Assembly (NCBI RefSeq): GCF_003334405.1
Contig: NZ_QOWM01000005.1
DNA length: 64,000 nucleotides
Source: Escherichia coli
GTDB lineage: Bacteria; Pseudomonadota; Gammaproteobacteria; Enterobacterales; Enterobacteriaceae
Direction: 5' to 3' (one strand)
A program made the translations under genes and the position numbers. Under the pieces are notes generated by a model. The model worked only from the letters and a program-made list of their open reading frames with translations. It made no database searches and was not told the DNA's origin. Shown piece after piece: positions 16,176-61,276 of this stretch; the first letter of the stretch is position 1; each line of letters opens with the position of its first letter.

Positions 16176-16574
16176 ATTGCCACTCTTCTTGACCAAATGA
16201 CCGCGAACAGGGTGATCACTGTCAACTTATTACGCGGTGCGAATTTACAAATCCTTAACGTAAGTCGCAGAAAAAGCCCTTTACTTAGCTTAAAAAAGGC
16301 TAAACTATTTCCTGACTGTACTAACGGTTGAATTGTTAAAAAATGCTACATATCCTTCTGTTTACTTAGGATAATTTTATAAAAAATAAATCTCGACAAT
16401 TGGATTCACCACGTTTATTAGTTGTATGATGCAACTAGTTGGATTATTAAAATAATGTGACGAAAGCTAGCATTTAGATACGATGATTTCATCAAACTGT
16501 TAACGTGCTACAATTGAACTTGATATATGTCAACGAAGCGTAGTTTTATTGGGTGTCCGGCCCCTCTTAGCCTG

Positions 16575-16715
16575 TTATGTTGCTGTTAAAATGGTTAGGA
16601 TGACAGCCGTTTTTGACACTGTCGGGTCCTGAGGGAAAGTACCCACGACCAAGCTAATGATGTTGTTGACGTTGATGGAAAGTGCATCAAGAACGCAATT
16701 ACGTACTTTAGTCAT
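16575..16715 (-). CDS. yjjY: Small protein YjjY, 46 aa (MTKVRNCVLDALSINVNNIISLVVGTFPQDPTVSKTAVILTILTAT)
   Basis: Translated by hand from the minus strand; matches my recollection of the small ORF annotated between arcA and lasT. Below the ORF-track size cutoff. Confidence 0.6.
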   Translation of the reverse strand: MTKVRNCVLDALSINVNNIISLVVGTFPQDPTVSKTAVILTILTAT

Positions 16716-16810
16716 GTTACGCCGATCATGTTAATTTGCAGCATGCATCAGGCAGGTCAGGGACTTTTGTACTTCCTGTTTCGATTTAGTTGGCAATTTA
16801 GGTAGCAAAC

Positions 16811-48444: not shown

Positions 48445-49476
48445 ATGTCTGCATTTACCCCGGCAAGTGAAGTCTTGCTGCGTCACAGTGATGATTTCGA
48501 ACAAAGCCGTATTCTGTTTGCCGGAGACTTACAGGATGACCTGCCCGCGCGTTTAGATACCGCGGCCAGCCGTGCTCATACCCAGCAATTCCACCACTGG
48601 CAGGTGTTAAGCCGCCAGATGGGGGATAACGCCCGTTTTAGTCTGGTCGCCACGGCGAATGATGTCGCAGATTGCGATACGCTGATTTACTACTGGCCGA
48701 AGAACAAACCGGAAGCCCAGTTCCAGTTGATGAATTTACTTTCTCTGCTGCCGGTGGGGACGGATATTTTTGTCGTTGGCGAGAACCGCAGCGGCGTGCG
48801 CAGCGCCGAGCAGATGCTGGCAGATTATGCGCCGTTGAATAAAGTCGACAGCGCTCGTCGCTGTGGCCTCTATTTTGGTCGTCTGGAAAAACAGCCAGTA
48901 TTTGATGCGGATAAATTCTGGGGCGAATACAGCGTCGATGGCCTGACGATCAAAACGCTGCCGGGCGTGTTTAGCCGCGACGGTCTGGATGTCGGTAGCC
49001 AGTTGCTGCTCTCGACGTTAACTCCGCACACGAAAGGTAAAGTGCTGGATGTCGGCTGTGGCGCGGGGGTGCTTTCAGTTGCCTTTGCGCGCCATTCACC
49101 GAAAATTCGTCTCACCTTGTGCGATGTCTCTGCCCCGGCGGTAGAAGCCAGCCGTGCGACGCTTGCGGCCAACGGTGTTGAAGGTGAAGTCTTTGCCAGC
49201 AACGTCTTTTCCGAGGTGAAAGGTCGTTTTGATATGATCATCTCCAACCCGCCGTTCCACGATGGGATGCAAACCAGCCTGGATGCGGCGCAAACGCTGA
49301 TTCGCGGCGCGGTGCGTCATCTTAATAGCGGCGGCGAGCTGCGAATTGTAGCGAACGCCTTCCTGCCTTATCCGGACGTGCTGGATGAGACATTTGGCTT
49401 CCATGAAGTGATTGCGCAAACCGGGCGTTTCAAGGTGTATCGCGCCATTATGACCCGCCAGGCGAAGAAAGGTTAA
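48445..49476 (+). CDS. rsmC: 16S rRNA (guanine1207-N2)-methyltransferase RsmC, 343 aa
   Basis: ORF track translation with SAM-binding motif ([12 protein letters not shown]) and NPPFH catalytic motif. Confidence 0.95.
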
Positions 49477-49494
49477 GTATCCCGCCGCAAGCCT

Positions 49495-49655
<161 letters not shown>

Positions 49656-49707
49656 GTTTCCTGATGGACATTTTTCCAGCAATTACACCTCCGGCGATAA
49701 TTAACTA

Positions 49708-49735
49708 TTGACGAAAAGCTGAAAACCACTAGAAT
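49708..49735 (+). promoter_or_regulatory. Sigma70 promoter of the tRNA-Leu gene (-35 TTGACG, 16-bp spacer, -10 TAGAAT)
   Basis: Near-consensus hexamers read directly about 40 bp upstream of the mature tRNA 5' end. Confidence 0.6.
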
Positions 49736-49776
49736 GCGCCTCCGTGGTAGCAATTCTTTTTAAGAATTGATGGTAT

Positions 49777-49863
49777 GCGAAGGTGGCGGAATTGGTAGAC
49801 GCGCTAGCTTCAGGTGTTAGTGTCCTTACGGACGTGGGGGTTCAAGTCCCCCCCCTCGCACCA
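49777..49863 (+). tRNA. leuV: tRNA-Leu (anticodon CAG), 87 nt, CCA encoded
   Basis: Sequence gcgaaggtggcggaattggtagacgcgctagcttcaggtgttagtgtccttacggacgtgggggttcaagtcccccccctcgcacca has a cloverleaf with long variable arm; anticodon loop cuuCAGgug. Only one copy is present in the window. Confidence 0.95.
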
Positions 49864-49901
49864 ATTATCTTTACTTCCTTTCTTGTTTCTTCCCTGTTTT
49901 G

Positions 49902-50138
49902 TCATCCCTGATTCAAATTCACTATCATCAGCATGATGCCAGCAATAAGCGCCAGGCACGATGGTAGCAAAATGTAATGCCGCAACTGTTTGTGATACAG
50001 CATCACAGGCGTCAATACTAATCCCATCAGAATGACAATCCGCCACTGATCCGGCGATAAATCCGCATACATCAGCCCTGCAATCAGCAATCCCGGCAGC
50101 AACACTCCCCAGCCACTGCCCAGCATACGTTGCAACAT
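49902..50138 (-). CDS. yjjZ: Small inner-membrane protein YjjZ, 78 aa from MLQRMLGSGWGVLLPGLLIAG...
   Basis: ORF track 49902..50249; internal Met chosen to give the 78-aa form I recall. Confidence 0.65.
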   Translation of the reverse strand: MLQRMLGSGWGVLLPGLLIAGLMYADLSPDQWRIVILMGLVLTPVMLYHKQLRHYILLPSCLALIAGIMLMIVNLNQG

Positions 50139-50278
50139 GGTTTCATCTCTTTCATTGATAATGATAACCAATATCATATGATAATTTTTATCATTTGCAA
50201 GCCAGAGAAATCCCTTGCTATCGGGTAAACCTATCGCTAGGATTAGCAATCATTATCATTTAGATTACTATCCCGATT

Positions 50279-51067
50279 ATGGCCTATCGTTCCGCACCGC
50301 TCTATGAAGATATCATCTGGCGAACGCATCTCCAGCCACAGGATGCTGGGCTTGCACAAGCCGTACGTGCGACGATCGCCGAACATCGTGAACATTTGCT
50401 GGAGTTTATCCGTCTGGATGAACCCGCCCCGCTTCGCGCCATGACGCTGGCGCAATGGTCATCACCGAATACGCTAAGTTCCCTACTGGCGGTCTATTCC
50501 GATCATATCTACCGCAACCAACCAACGATGATCCGCGAGAACAAGCCGCTGATCTCACTGTGGGCACAATGGTATATCGGCCTGATGGTGCCACCATTAA
50601 TGCTGGCGCTGCTGACGCAGGAAAAAGCATTAGATGTGACGCCGGAACATTTCCACGTTGAGTTTCACGAAACCGGACGCGCCGCCTGTTTCTGGGTCGA
50701 TGTGTGTGAAGATAAAAACGCAACACTACATTCGCCGCAGCAGCGAATGGAAACGTTAATCAGCCAGGCGCTTGTTCCGGTTGTGCAGGCACTAGAAGCA
50801 ACGGGAGAGATTAACGGTAAACTTATCTGGAGCAATACCGGTTATTTGATCAACTGGTATCTGACTGAGATGAAACAGCTGCTCGGCGAGGCGACGGTTG
50901 AATCGCTGCGCCATGCCCTCTTTTTTGAGAAAACGCTCACGAACGGTGAAGATAATCCACTCTGGCGTACCGTGGTGCTGCGCGACGGCCTGCTGGTGCG
51001 CCGCACTTGCTGCCAGCGTTATCGCTTACCGGATGTGCAGCAATGTGGCGATTGTACGCTGAAATGA
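50279..51067 (+). CDS. fhuF: Ferric-siderophore reductase FhuF (C-terminal 2Fe-2S Cys cluster), 262 aa
   Basis: Translation ends ...CCQRYRLPDVQQCGDCTLK with the C-C-x10-C-x2-C motif. Confidence 0.93.
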   Translation: MAYRSAPLYEDIIWRTHLQPQDAGLAQAVRATIAEHREHLLEFIRLDEPAPLRAMTLAQWSSPNTLSSLLAVYSDHIYRNQPTMIRENKPLISLWAQWYIGLMVPPLMLALLTQEKALDVTPEHFHVEFHETGRAACFWVDVCEDKNATLHSPQQRMETLISQALVPVVQALEATGEINGKLIWSNTGYLINWYLTEMKQLLGEATVESLRHALFFEKTLTNGEDNPLWRTVVLRDGLLVRRTCCQRYRLPDVQQCGDCTLK

Positions 51068-51104
51068 AAGCACTGCCGGGGAAGTAAACCCGGCATCATG
51101 CAAA

Positions 51105-51782
51105 TTAATAGGGATGCAACACATTACTTGCTTCGCAATGCCGCATACATAACAGAATATCTGCGGCCTCCAACAACCCTGCATCAGAACTGACGCCCAG
51201 TTTCGACATCACATTAAATTTATGTGCACGGATCGTTTTAATATTGCGTTTAAGCTGCTCGGCAATTTGTGTCATTGAGTAGCCACGCGACATAAAGCGC
51301 AATATTTCTCTCTCCGTCGGGCTTAGCGTCCGGCTTTGGTTAATGTACCACTGATTGTTCAGTCGGTCGGTCGCCTGACGTACACCATTTAATGACAAAA
51401 AGAGTTCCTGATGAAAAATCTCCAGCGTTGACGCTTTACTTAATACACCGTCCAGCGGTGATGGCGACAATGAACCGATCAGCCGAGCTTCAATATCATC
51501 ATCCGCAATAACTAAACGTCGGGTACGCGGAAACTTAATCGCCAGTTCAGTCAGGCAAGATAATCCCTCTCTGCGTTCACTTCTCATGGCAGAAAAAGAA
51601 AAAATGACCGCCGCAAACGAGATCCGCGACATGGCATCCTGAAATGACTCCTGACTGGTATAGGTATGGAGCTTATAAGGGTTACCTGCAAACTTTCTGA
51701 ATAAACTCTCAATACCGATACTGCTCATGACGCATTTTTCTATGAGTGCGACATTTCTCTTCTTAATTCGGCTGTGTTCCAT
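51105..51782 (-). CDS. bglJ: LuxR-family transcriptional regulator BglJ, 225 aa
   Basis: ORF track translation with C-terminal LuxR-type HTH; overlaps the upstream yjjQ by 43 nt. Confidence 0.9.
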
Positions 51783-52465
51783 TCTGCGGCATCTCCATAA
51801 ACAGAAGGCAAGTTAAGTTCTCTTGCACCCTGCGCGCTATTTATCCATGCATACATTTCAGCGTTGCTGTGAATTGCCAGTCGACGCATCGCACTGTTTT
51901 TTTGGGCGCTGATAGTTTTATTACTTTTCTTAAGCAATGAAGCTATCTGGTTGATGCCCCATCCTTTACCTAATAGCCGCAGTACCTTGCGCTCTGAAAG
52001 AGTGAGAATGACGGAGCGATAGCTAAAATCATGAGTTTCAGTCATTGCCGGAGAGGTCAGCATGGCGCTGATACGCTCTGCGTGCGTATTGCCGGAACGT
52101 ACGGTCTTGACCAGATTCTCAATGGGTTCACCATCAGACAATAACGTCGCCGTAGGGCACATGAGCAGTTCTACTGCCTGGGAATACCAGGAGCGTGACA
52201 CCATGAAAACCCAGTGAATTTCCCGATATTGTGAGATTAAAGAATAATAATGTTCACAAACAGAACGTGGATCTTCACTTTCACCGGCTAAATCAGCAAT
52301 GACTAATCCGGAACGACGTAATTGTAATAAGGTAAGGTCCTCCGCAGAGGCGCTGGATATTATTTCATATTCAGGGAAGTGAGTCCTCATGACCTCTTTT
52401 AACCCTGCTTGCATAACAGGTATTTTACTGATAACAATTCCATTTTTGCAGCATCCTGGCAACAT
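51740..52465 (-). CDS. yjjQ: LuxR-family transcriptional regulator YjjQ, 241 aa
   Basis: ORF track translation with C-terminal LuxR-type HTH; first gene of the yjjQ-bglJ pair. Confidence 0.9.
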
Positions 52466-53083
52466 ATTTCCTCCACATCCACTGTCTAAAAATCATGATG
52501 GTTTATTCAGGATATTCATTCCTTAAATGTTTCCAGCAAATTAATAGATTAAGCGAATAAATTATCCTTAGCATTCACTTTCATATCAGCATACTCCTGC
52601 TGCACAACAACTCCACAGCATGTGTCAGAAGGTTAGCATCAAATGATAACCTGGTGAAATAGCCTGGAGACATTTAAAATATCTACATTAAGTTGTTAGA
52701 AATACTTAATGAAAAACAGAGTTCTCATTCATTTAATTTATAATTAACTGATATCCCTTCCCGCAGAATGCAAAATCACACAATCAATATTTGTTCAATA
52801 AAATCTGATAGTTTTAACTTGTAAAAATTAAAAAACGCGCCCAGTTATCTTTTATCCTGATTCGTAAAGGCTAAAGAATAAATTCATTATAGTGATAATA
52901 TTCATGTGATAATTTGTTTGCGGCGAGAGATAATTCCCTTTTTATCACCGAGCTTGTCCCGATAACCAGGATTAATCAGCGCAATTTTGATCTTAACCTA
53001 CCGCAAAACTACCGTGCTTCATGATACAAATGGATTCTCATTATCTGAACAATACGCAGCACGTCTATGACAAAGGGCGAGTT
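52466..53083. promoter_or_regulatory. Very AT-rich 620-bp divergent regulatory region between yjjQ and yjjP (nucleoid-protein silencing expected)
   Basis: AT content is visibly far above the flanking coding sequence; no ORFs. H-NS/LeuO control of yjjQ-bglJ is established knowledge, individual sites not resolved here. Confidence 0.5.
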
Positions 53084-53854
53084 ATGCAAACTGAGCAACA
53101 GCGAGCCGTAACACGGCTTTGTATCCAGTGTGGATTATTTCTTTTGCAACATGGTGCGGAAAGCGCGTTGGTTGATGAGCTTTCCTCACGACTGGGTCGG
53201 GCGTTGGGGATGGACAGCGTCGAAAGTTCTATCTCTTCGAACGCCATAGTGCTGACAACCATTAAAGATGGGCAATGCCTGACATCGACACGTAAAAATC
53301 AAGATCGCGGCATTAATATGCATGTGGTGACTGAAGTCCAGCACATTGTGATTCTGGCGGAGCACCATCTGCTGGATTACAAAGGCGTAGAGAAACGATT
53401 TAGCCAAATTCAGCCATTACGTTACCCAAGATGGCTGGTAGCCTTAATGGTTGGCCTTTCCTGCGCCTGTTTCTGTAAACTCAATAAAGGTGGCTGGGAT
53501 GGTGCCGTCATCACCTTCTTTGCCAGTACGGCCGCGATGTATATCCGCCAGCTGCTGGCACAACGTCATCTTCATCCACAGATCAACTTTTGCCTTACCG
53601 CTTTCGCCGCCACCACCATTTCCGGATTGCTTTTGCAACTCCCTACTTTCAGCAATACCCCCACCATCGCGATGGCCGCCAGCGTTCTGCTGCTGGTGCC
53701 GGGCTTTCCGTTGATTAATGCCGTCGCCGATATGTTTAAAGGCCACATCAATACCGGACTGGCACGCTGGGCGATCGCCAGTCTGCTGACACTGGCTACC
53801 TGCGTCGGCGTGGTGATGGCACTGACGATTTGGGGGCTACGCGGATGGGTGTGA
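53084..53854 (+). CDS. yjjP: Inner membrane protein YjjP (ThrE-like/DUF1212), putative carboxylate exporter subunit; start at [12 protein letters not shown]..., 256 aa
   Basis: ORF track 53021..53854 translation; internal Met chosen. Confidence 0.85.

Positions 53855-60081: not shown

Positions 60082-61276
<1,195 letters not shown>

Follow-up and report, generated by a model that had tools for sequence, protein, structure and literature searches.

Organization of the yjjQ-bglJ locus

The window (the whole stretch of 64,000 nucleotides of Escherichia coli DNA that was analyzed) carries, between fhuF and yjjP, two overlapping regulator genes and an AT-rich control region (Table 1). The locus is the yjjQ-bglJ operon of E. 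coli plus the spacer that it has in common with the divergent gene yjjP. A search of 5426 complete E. coli genomes recovered region 50900-53300, annotated fhuF / bglJ / yjjQ / yjjP, from 5425 of them, and the window sequence was 95-100% identical to other E. coli genomes. A prior sequence-only reading had named two overlapping LuxR-family genes yjjQ and bglJ and had put their overlap at 43 nt. Both statements agree with the ORF list and the PGAP annotation; in addition, bglJ matches the BglJ equivalog model, and both products carry a GerE domain. They form an operon and are transcribed together (PMC5025477, PMC3950696). The yjjQ start codon is preceded at 4 nt by a GGAGG Shine-Dalgarno sequence that is conserved among the compared sequences.

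The divergent gene yjjP encodes a ThrE-family membrane protein, and the corresponding neighbor gene calls in the compared taxa carry Pfam ThrE. The spacer length depends on the yjjP start: the PGAP start at 53084 gives 618 bp, and an alternative in-frame ATG at 53021 gives 555 bp. The 2008 abstract of Stratmann and coworkers is said to give a spacer figure of 555 bp.

Table 1. Features of the yjjQ-bglJ locus (positions in the window)
Feature	Position	Strand	Description and basis
Candidate operon terminator	51070-51101	-	GC-rich hairpin; folding
bglJ	51105-51782	-	Second operon gene, 225 aa; ORF list and PGAP annotation of an identical genome concur
yjjQ/bglJ overlap	51740-51782	-	43 nt, out of phase; final 14 codons of yjjQ and initial 14 of bglJ
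yjjQ	51740-52465	-	First operon gene, 241-aa LuxR/FixJ-type transcription factor; ORF list and PGAP (identical sequence)
bglJ Shine-Dalgarno sequence, GGAG	51793-51796	-	Within yjjQ (codons Gly-Asp), 10 nt 5' of the bglJ ATG
AT-rich divergent control region yjjQ/yjjP	52466-53083		618 bp, 33.8% GC
Promoter-like site of yjjQ-bglJ, CTGATA-17-GATAAT	52561-52589	-	Predicted; consensus scan
Promoter-like site of yjjP, ATGAAA-17-TTTAAT	52709-52737	+	Predicted; published hexamer pair
yjjP	53084-53854	+	Divergent gene on the common control region; PGAP and ORF list

Comparison with the K-12 yjjQ-bglJ/yjjP locus (Stratmann, Madhusudan & Schnetz 2008, J Bacteriol 190:926), described in the citing papers PMC5025477, PMC3950696, and PMC6698644, showed the same genes, gene order, overlap, and AT-rich spacer. 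The window comes from a non-K-12 strain, and nothing of substance differed.

Base composition and age of the locus

GC content was 45.1% in bglJ, 45.0% in yjjQ, and 33.8% in the spacer, versus 52.1% in the window. The spacer is the most AT-rich stretch of the window (only 0.3% of 618-bp windows were equally low), with a trough of 26-31% GC in 100-bp windows at 52626-52950. The whole 1979-bp segment 51105-53083, at 41.6%, had the lowest GC content of all windows of its size. Composition was ranked on an ORF-based gene set consisting of the 56 long ORFs of the window. In this set yjjQ ranked lowest and bglJ second lowest in both GC and GC3 (GC3 of 0.430 and 0.473, respectively, versus a mean of 0.588 with a standard deviation of 0.048), and by codon-usage distance from the remaining ORFs yjjQ ranked fourth and bglJ second. 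These windowed GC and codon-usage calculations bear out the sequence-only reading of a compositionally atypical, AT-rich locus with a divergent region of about 620 bp. As a separate observation, strain SC516 differs from the window outside 46-60 kb by a prophage and other differences.

The same reading had called the composition typical of horizontally acquired DNA, a claim that found no support in that wording. A recent import by E. coli, namely an islet that is silenced as foreign DNA, would fit the lowest GC and GC3 of the window and the atypical codon usage. It would also fit the silencing of yjjQ-bglJ by H-NS (PMC5025477) and the preference of H-NS for silencing AT-rich acquired DNA (PMC2646131). 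Against it stand the presence of the operon in all but one of the complete E. coli genomes and a gene neighborhood that is kept across Escherichia, Citrobacter, Salmonella, Intestinirhabdus, and Kosakonia. Six taxa of these five genera were compared: E. albertii, Citrobacter, S. enterica, S. bongori, Intestinirhabdus, and Kosakonia. In each, yjjP-yjjB is the immediate upstream neighbor of the operon, except that a single gene pair is inserted in Intestinirhabdus, and zero to two genes separate bglJ from fhuF. The borders of the 2-kb segment show no integrase or other mobility genes, tRNA junction, or direct repeats, and the nearby tRNA-Leu is set apart by yjjZ and fhuF. The distribution in E. 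coli is near-universal and the context stable across the five genera, as opposed to the patchy distribution, variable context, and mobility genes of horizontally acquired DNA.

The operon is AT-rich relative to its flanks in every genus compared, including one whose flanks have 60% GC; yjjQ has 42-47% GC across the compared taxa and the flanks 50-60%. An AT-rich operon in the same neighborhood in five genera argues that the AT-richness is old and maintained, and on these comparisons recent import is extremely improbable. Any transfer predates Escherichia, Citrobacter, Salmonella, Intestinirhabdus, and Kosakonia; a very old acquisition of the operon is possible.

The control region

Silencing by a nucleoid protein, which the sequence-only reading had proposed, is already documented. 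The operon yjjQ-bglJ is subject to repression by H-NS and activation by LeuO according to PMC5025477 and PMC3950696, both of which cite Stratmann et al. 2008 and give LeuO as the sole known activator. In addition, the yjjP-yjjQ spacer is flagged as bound by H-NS ("HNS") in a table of an RpoD genomic SELEX study (PMC3946193). By this published work, the spacer of the present sequence would be the place where H-NS silences the operon and LeuO counteracts it. The low GC content of the spacer relative to the window and the two lowest-GC3 ORFs next to it agree with the AT content of an H-NS-silenced locus. The 10-mer high-affinity H-NS motif TCGATAAATT, allowing up to two mismatches, had 73 matches in the window versus 59.6 +/- 7.9 expected; it was not enriched in the spacer, which held only two matches.

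A promoter scan returned eight promoter-like sites versus 4.6 +/- 2.0 expected, which is not a significant enrichment, and we retained only the site that agreed with a published prediction. This site, the predicted yjjQ-bglJ promoter, matches the hexamer pair listed in PMC3946193, and Escherichia, Citrobacter, and Salmonella all retain its GGATAA(T) block. The hexamer pair listed for yjjP in the same paper matches the window once, at the position given in Table 1.

At the other end of the operon, the 37-bp gap between the convergent genes bglJ and fhuF contains a hairpin directly past the bglJ stop codon (predicted folding energy of -17.6 kcal/mol, z = -3.3 versus shuffled sequences). A terminator scan based on T-runs did not call this hairpin, which is likely the transcription terminator of the operon. 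In an Rfam scan of 49400-53400, neither the operon nor the spacer had a match; the interval yielded only a tRNA and, near rsmC, REP-like naRNA4 matches.

BglJ as a predicted pseudo-receiver protein

BglJ matched the BglJ equivalog NCBIfam NF008548 with 383.1 bits (cutoff of 176, E = 2.7e-115), residues 19-225 aligning to model positions 1-207. The Pfam GerE helix-turn-helix (PF00196) was found at residues 153-206 of YjjQ (E = 1.1e-7) and residues 152-203 of BglJ (E = 2.4e-12). A sequence-only search of the PDB with BglJ aligned the helix-turn-helix alone, and the receiver domain was seen through structure prediction and profile alignment. The receiver fold was examined on BglJ only. Its AlphaFold2 model (pLDDT of 82) shows a (beta-alpha)5 fold followed by a helix-turn-helix, with strands at residues 9-15, 36-41, 56-62, 88-93, and 112-115 and helices between them. 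The top Foldseek matches of the model were to full-length RcsB (E = 5e-11, TM score of 0.67-0.75), with further matches to FixJ, VraR, and NarL.

For the residue-level comparison, BglJ was aligned by hhalign with an RcsB sequence, the C-terminal part of which agrees with the alignment from the PDB search. Ser62 of BglJ lies opposite Asp56 of RcsB and Lys116 opposite Lys109. Ser62 is invariant in 17 homologs, and the end of strand beta3 thus lacks the phospho-acceptor Asp. This serine, invariant at the RcsB Asp56 position, indicates that BglJ is an atypical, predicted pseudo-receiver regulator in which Ser replaces the phospho-acceptor Asp. The acidic pair of RcsB, which we take to be D10-D11, would be expected where BglJ has Glu15-Lys16; these residues are at the end of strand beta1, in a stretch outside the hhalign alignment. 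RcsB is a FixJ/NarL-type regulator with the auxiliary partners RcsA, BglJ, GadE, and MatA. BglJ shares with it the fold, the GerE helix-turn-helix, and the conserved Lys opposite K109, and differs in Ser62 and, where the acidic pair would be expected, in Glu15-Lys16. A pseudo-receiver domain in BglJ would fit the published statement that BglJ-RcsB activity is independent of RcsB phosphorylation (PMC5025477). In YjjQ, an Asp58 lies within "VIADL", as read from the sequence.

The yjjQ-bglJ overlap and the start of BglJ

The overlap of yjjQ and bglJ is 40-55 nt long in nine taxa and always 1 modulo 3. In all nine, the bglJ ATG is preceded by GGAG at 10-nt spacing, and the GGAG always uses the Gly codon GGA, which makes up 17-43% of Gly codons in these genes; the nine taxa are related, such that 9/9 overstates the number of independent observations. 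Within the overlap region the peptide in the BglJ frame is better conserved than that in the YjjQ frame (mean pairwise identity of 0.66 versus 0.48), and the 18 N-terminal residues of BglJ are conserved down to an overall identity of 48%.

The overlap would be an annotation artifact if BglJ started at Met19 (ATG at 51728-51726), as a protein of 207 aa. Several observations point in this direction. Met19 lies 11 nt past the yjjQ stop codon and is invariant in 17 homologs, and in two distant taxa the stop codon of yjjQ and the Met19 codon overlap, the junction reading ATGA or TGATG. NF008548, a model of 207 positions, aligns only to residues 19-225. Several PGAP calls begin at Met19, and NCBI records for Kosakonia, S. 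bongori, and Enterobacter list BglJ proteins of 206, 207, and 211 aa that start from the internal Met. However, Met19 has no preceding Shine-Dalgarno-like sequence, whereas every one of the nine taxa keeps the upstream ATG with its GGAG. Residues 1-18 themselves show conservation between genera (with M1, A12, E15, and C17 nearly invariant), above the level of the YjjQ reading, and strand beta1 comprises residues 9-15 of the AlphaFold2 model, so that a start at Met19 would remove a core strand. We consider the shorter protein very unlikely. The upstream start is preferred, and the overlap is a genuine and ancient feature whose phase has been kept in several Enterobacteriaceae genera. Both the GGAG and the start codon of bglJ sit inside the 3' end of yjjQ, and the overlapped codons lead into predicted strand beta1 of BglJ.

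A fused YjjQ-BglJ protein made by programmed -1 frameshifting was also considered. bglJ is in the -1 frame with respect to yjjQ, and by eye the overlap contains no X XXY YYZ slippery heptamer.

Translation of bglJ

The sequence-only reading had taken the overlap as a sign of translational coupling. The overlap itself stands as genuine and conserved, while coupling is weakly supported given the conserved Shine-Dalgarno sequence and accessible start of bglJ. In a coupled arrangement, ribosomes from yjjQ would re-initiate at the bglJ start or would have to open it, and BglJ would be made only with YjjQ. Such coupling draws on the same-strand overlap of the yjjQ stop codon with the bglJ start region, the conservation of its length class and phase in nine taxa, which suggests constraint, the co-transcription of the genes (PMC5025477, PMC3950696), and the fact that yjjQ ribosomes must traverse the bglJ start across 43 nt of shared sequence. 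Our literature search, limited to searchable papers, found no discussion of coupling for this gene pair.

Termination-reinitiation typically involves overlaps of 1 or 4 nt. The yjjQ/bglJ pair resembles coupled pairs with ATGA or TAATG junctions in being adjacent, same-strand, co-transcribed, and overlapping, but it overlaps by 43 nt instead of 1-4 nt, the yjjQ stop lying 43 nt 3' of the bglJ ATG, and bglJ has its own Shine-Dalgarno sequence and an open start. The start is neither sequestered nor devoid of a ribosome-binding site. A search for a hairpin sequestering it found none, and there is unusually little structure in the region: a 140-nt segment around the start of bglJ folded less stably than 198 of 200 shuffled sequences (z = +1.9), and the Shine-Dalgarno sequence and AUG are unpaired in the predicted minimum-free-energy fold. 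In all nine taxa the accessibility of the ribosome-binding site lay above the average of the operon, at the 63rd-98th percentile, so unmasking by yjjQ ribosomes appears unneeded. Indirect genetic data point the same way: a mini-Tn10 insertion upstream of bglJ (bglJC; allele yjjQ/bglJ-Y6) leads to constitutive BglJ (PMC3950696, PMC6698644), and bglJ alone on a plasmid is also active (PMC5025477).

The conserved GGAG and unstructured start argue that independent initiation at bglJ is more likely than coupling by termination-reinitiation, and these features taken with the constitutive BglJ of the mini-Tn10 allele make obligatory coupling unlikely. Ribosomes loading at the accessible site of bglJ itself would mainly translate the gene, and yjjQ ribosome traffic would at most modulate this translation. 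A more speculative reading, which we regard as doubtful, is that the fixed-phase overlap of 40-55 nt is a translational control device. Here, yjjQ ribosomes would occlude or feed the bglJ start and so set the YjjQ:BglJ ratio, perhaps with a short, Met19-initiated BglJ that lacks beta1 being made in addition by re-initiation past the stop codon of yjjQ. In E. coli 11 nt separate this stop from Met19 downstream of it, and in Enterobacter-like taxa the two overlap.

Discussion

The yjjQ-bglJ locus and its control by H-NS and LeuO are already known, and in this respect the observation is correct but ordinary. Taken together with the published work, the locus very probably operates as follows. H-NS would bind the very AT-rich spacer, the AT-richness of which reaches into the 5' part of yjjQ, and hold the divergent promoters off under laboratory conditions, and the LysR-type regulator LeuO would bind in the spacer and counter H-NS. 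The AT-richness would be a long-kept property of a silenced locus. The operon encodes two RcsB-like, FixJ/NarL-type regulators, and BglJ, which appears to lack the phospho-acceptor Asp, pairs with RcsB, as published work shows, in a heterodimer that activates bgl, leuO, and other loci. YjjQ has been reported to act as a repressor of flhDC.

Like bgl, leuO, and the cas operon, all silenced by H-NS and antagonized by LeuO, yjjQ-bglJ has an AT-rich promoter region, is silent in the laboratory, and is relieved by LeuO; it differs from them in that the silenced genes are themselves regulators. A loop of mutual activation links yjjQ-bglJ and leuO (PMC5025477). The operon is a core locus that keeps its synteny between genera, whereas the presence of bgl varies from one E. 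coli lineage to another (PMC2646131).

Our analysis adds four points to this picture. The overlap and the ribosome-binding site embedded in it are conserved across several genera. The AT-richness appears old and maintained rather than a mark of recent import. BglJ is a predicted pseudo-receiver protein in which Ser takes the position of the phospho-acceptor Asp. Finally, residues 1-18 of BglJ, left out of the NCBIfam model and of several database annotations, are predicted to hold a core strand of the receiver fold. The locus belongs to the H-NS / LeuO / RcsB network, already described in published work, that governs the bgl operon, leuO, motility, and virulence-related genes.

Identity and layout of the operon

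PGAP annotation of the complete E. coli genome SC516 lists fhuF, bglJ, yjjQ, yjjP, and yjjB, with starts and stops that agree with those in the window, and BglJ passed its NCBIfam equivalog model (383 bits, cutoff 176). The identification of this locus as yjjQ-bglJ in the sequence-only reading was therefore correct, and the biology of the operon is already published. A GerE LuxR-type helix-turn-helix was found in both YjjQ and BglJ, which share 40% identity over 53 helix-turn-helix residues and are only distant relatives of each other. The convergent genes bglJ and fhuF are 37 bp apart, and the gap contains a hairpin rich in GC (-17.6 kcal/mol, z = -3.3) that is a plausible terminator. An Rfam scan of the operon and spacer found no RNA family. 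Elsewhere in the window, naRNA4 (CssrE, REP-derived) matches, one at 65.4 bits versus a gathering threshold of 59.5, lie directly downstream of rsmC. A single tRNA-Leu(CAG) gene is present between rsmC and yjjZ versus three tandem copies at this site in SC516, a difference suggestive of copy-number variation through recombination among the tandem tRNA genes.

Features of the yjjQ-bglJ locus and other elements of the window
Feature	Coordinates	Strand	Remarks
bglJ ORF	51105-51782	-	225 aa; ORF list and PGAP
yjjQ ORF	51740-52465	-	241 aa; ORF list and PGAP
bglJ/yjjQ overlap	51740-51782	-	43 nt
yjjQ-yjjP spacer	52466-53083		618 bp with PGAP yjjP start at 53084
GC trough core	52626-52950		26-31% GC
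Predicted yjjQ-bglJ promoter, CTGATA-17-GATAAT	52589-52561	-	hexamer pair found in window
Predicted yjjP promoter, ATGAAA-17-TTTAAT	52709-52737	+	hexamer pair found in window
Methyltransferase gene-arcA spacer	16176-16810		100-bp windows <33% GC at 16276-16550
naRNA4 matches	49461-49637
tRNA-Leu(CAG)	49777-49863
IS5-family transposase ORF	60228-61208	-	GC3 0.709
Segment with IS5-family transposase	60083-61276		~1.19 kb

Composition and silencing

GC content is 52.1% in the window, 45.1% in bglJ, 45.0% in yjjQ, and 33.8% in the spacer. Only 0.3% of 618-bp windows have GC as low as the spacer, and a window scan ranked the whole 1979-bp interval lowest in GC among intervals of that size. With 56 non-overlapping long ORFs of the window as a proxy gene set, yjjQ and bglJ had the lowest GC and GC3 (GC3 z = -3.3 and -2.4, respectively) and were within the four most deviant ORFs in codon usage. 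The visible compositional difference claimed earlier thus holds for both GC and codon usage, neither of which matches the average. Second in AT-richness within the window is the spacer separating arcA from a gene for a YjtD/TrmJ-family methyltransferase. The highest GC3 belongs to an IS5-family transposase ORF (NCBIfam NF033581, 366 bits) between lgoD and lgoR, on a segment absent in SC516.

The size of the divergent spacer agrees with the 620 bp first estimated, and depends on the yjjP start, which is ambiguous: the PGAP start gives 256 aa, and starting at the in-frame ATG found at 53021 would lengthen the protein to 277 aa and shorten the spacer to 555 bp. Gene callers report 256-258 aa in most genera and 277 aa in Intestinirhabdus. 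The 2008 abstract of Stratmann et al. reportedly gives the AT-rich intergenic region a length of 555 bp and places bound H-NS at its center; a yjjP start at the upstream ATG would agree with this length, and the GC trough would agree in position.

Silencing by a nucleoid protein, also proposed from composition, has published support. PMC5025477 and PMC3950696 state that the operon is activated by LeuO, repressed by H-NS, and off under laboratory conditions, and a genomic SELEX table in PMC3946193 lists H-NS as bound to the yjjP<>yjjQ spacer. Both promoters in the feature table above are predictions from PMC3946193; the GGATAA block of the yjjQ-bglJ promoter is kept in Escherichia, Citrobacter, and Salmonella. 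BglJ is described as acting as a heterodimer with RcsB (PMC3950696), and YjjQ is included among the binders of the flhDC region (PMC5493358, citing Wiebe et al. 2015).

Age of the locus

The locus is present in 5425 of 5426 complete E. coli genomes, several of which are 100% identical to it in sequence. Loci from other taxa were obtained through exact-protein look-ups of BglJ homologues, with distant taxa named from cluster members. In E. albertii, Citrobacter, S. enterica, S. bongori, Intestinirhabdus, and Kosakonia, yjjP-yjjB adjoin the operon on one side (with a gene pair inserted between yjjP-yjjB and the operon in Intestinirhabdus), and on the other fhuF lies 0-2 genes past bglJ. In all these taxa yjjQ has 42-47% GC and the spacer about 33-39%, versus flanks of 50-60%; Intestinirhabdus is the clearest case (yjjQ 45.4%, spacer 32.8%, flanks 59.8%). 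Neither a mobility gene nor a tRNA junction was found at the segment borders in E. coli.

Synteny and presence across E. coli indicate that the locus is core to the species and vertically inherited since at least the common ancestor of these genera, through which time its low GC has been maintained. Of the earlier description as horizontally acquired, silenced DNA, the AT-richness and H-NS silencing therefore stand, but for a locus that is ancient and syntenic; acquisition in ancient times is possible. We infer that the low GC is due not to recent import but to selection that favors H-NS binding, or to weak selection on codons in an operon that is silent.

Beyond Escherichia, an oppositely oriented gene of 152 aa carrying Pfam tRNA_edit (PF04073) separates bglJ from fhuF (loci L002, L003, L004, L005, L006, and L008), joined in Citrobacter and Kosakonia by a PTS EIIC gene. 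E. coli and E. albertii have neither gene; the locus has thus undergone remodelling on its fhuF side.

Reality of the overlap

Overlaps of 43 nt are often start-codon errors, and BglJ could instead begin at internal Met19, 11 nt past the yjjQ stop. The NCBIfam BglJ model NF008548 starts there, and for Kosakonia, S. bongori, and Enterobacter the NCBI records (P0106, P0123-P0136) likewise begin at the internal Met, giving 206-211 aa. However, residues 1-18 are kept down to 48% overall identity, with M1, A12, E15, and C17 nearly invariant. Over the ten codons before Met19 (encoding residues 9-18 and covering the 3' part of the overlap plus the codons directly after), mean pairwise identity is 0.66 in the BglJ frame versus 0.48 in the YjjQ frame. 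The upstream ATG is preceded at 10 nt by GGAG in all nine taxa compared, and the Gly codon giving GGA is always GGA, though these genes use GGA for only 17-43% of their Gly codons. The AlphaFold2 model of BglJ (pLDDT 82) has a canonical (beta-alpha)5 receiver fold, with full-length RcsB as the best Foldseek matches (TM 0.67-0.75); a Met19 start would remove its strand beta1 (residues 9-15).

The overlap measures 43 nt in Escherichia; Citrobacter, Salmonella, Intestinirhabdus, and Kosakonia each have 40 nt, and two taxa that are more distant have 55 and 52 nt, the length in every case being 1 modulo 3. This conserved length class and phase, together with the conservation, GGAG, and predicted fold that support the upstream start, indicate that the overlap reported initially is genuine and old. 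BglJ starts are annotated inconsistently, and internal-Met records omit 17-18 conserved residues including strand beta1. In the two most distant taxa (L007, 708-762, and L008, 1436-1487; one Enterobacter-like), the yjjQ stop has moved downstream and overlaps the internal Met, which is invariant (ATGA or TGATG); in the remaining seven it lies 11 nt upstream.

BglJ as a pseudo-receiver

Seventeen BglJ homologues were profile-aligned with an RcsB sequence whose C-terminal part agrees with a PDB alignment. Ser62, invariant among the homologues, fell at the position of Asp56, the phospho-acceptor of RcsB, and Lys116 at that of Lys109. Judged from this alignment, BglJ is a pseudo-receiver, and Ser at the phospho-acceptor position fits the phosphorylation-independent activity of BglJ-RcsB described in PMC5025477.

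Several E. coli BglJ clusters (P0003-P0010) are 215 or 216 aa. The one aligned, P0003, has an in-frame loss of residues 111-120 (window ~51423-51452), comprising predicted strand beta5 and conserved Lys116; bglJ may thus be impaired in some lineages. In strain WCHEC050613 (L012, 706-2159), IS1 within bglJ leaves two pseudogene fragments, with yjjQ intact.

Initiation of bglJ translation

Translational coupling had been suggested from the overlap; the literature searched makes no mention of it for yjjQ and bglJ. The yjjQ stop lies 43 nt beyond the bglJ start, rather than 1-4 nt as at typical termination-reinitiation junctions, and bglJ has its own conserved Shine-Dalgarno (GGAG). A 140-nt segment around its start is predicted to be less stably folded than 198 of 200 shuffled sequences, leaving the Shine-Dalgarno and AUG unpaired, and in all nine taxa the ribosome-binding site, ranked by predicted accessibility within the operon, falls between the 63rd and 98th percentiles. 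As described in PMC3950696 and PMC6698644, constitutive BglJ results from the bglJC allele, in which mini-Tn10 is inserted upstream of bglJ (yjjQ/bglJ-Y6), and PMC5025477 describes plasmid-borne bglJ as active by itself. Coupling is thus the less well supported suggestion, one that these sequence features do not favor. From them and the two bglJ constructs, we conclude that bglJ initiation would be mainly independent of yjjQ, the translation of which may influence bglJ positively or by occlusion.
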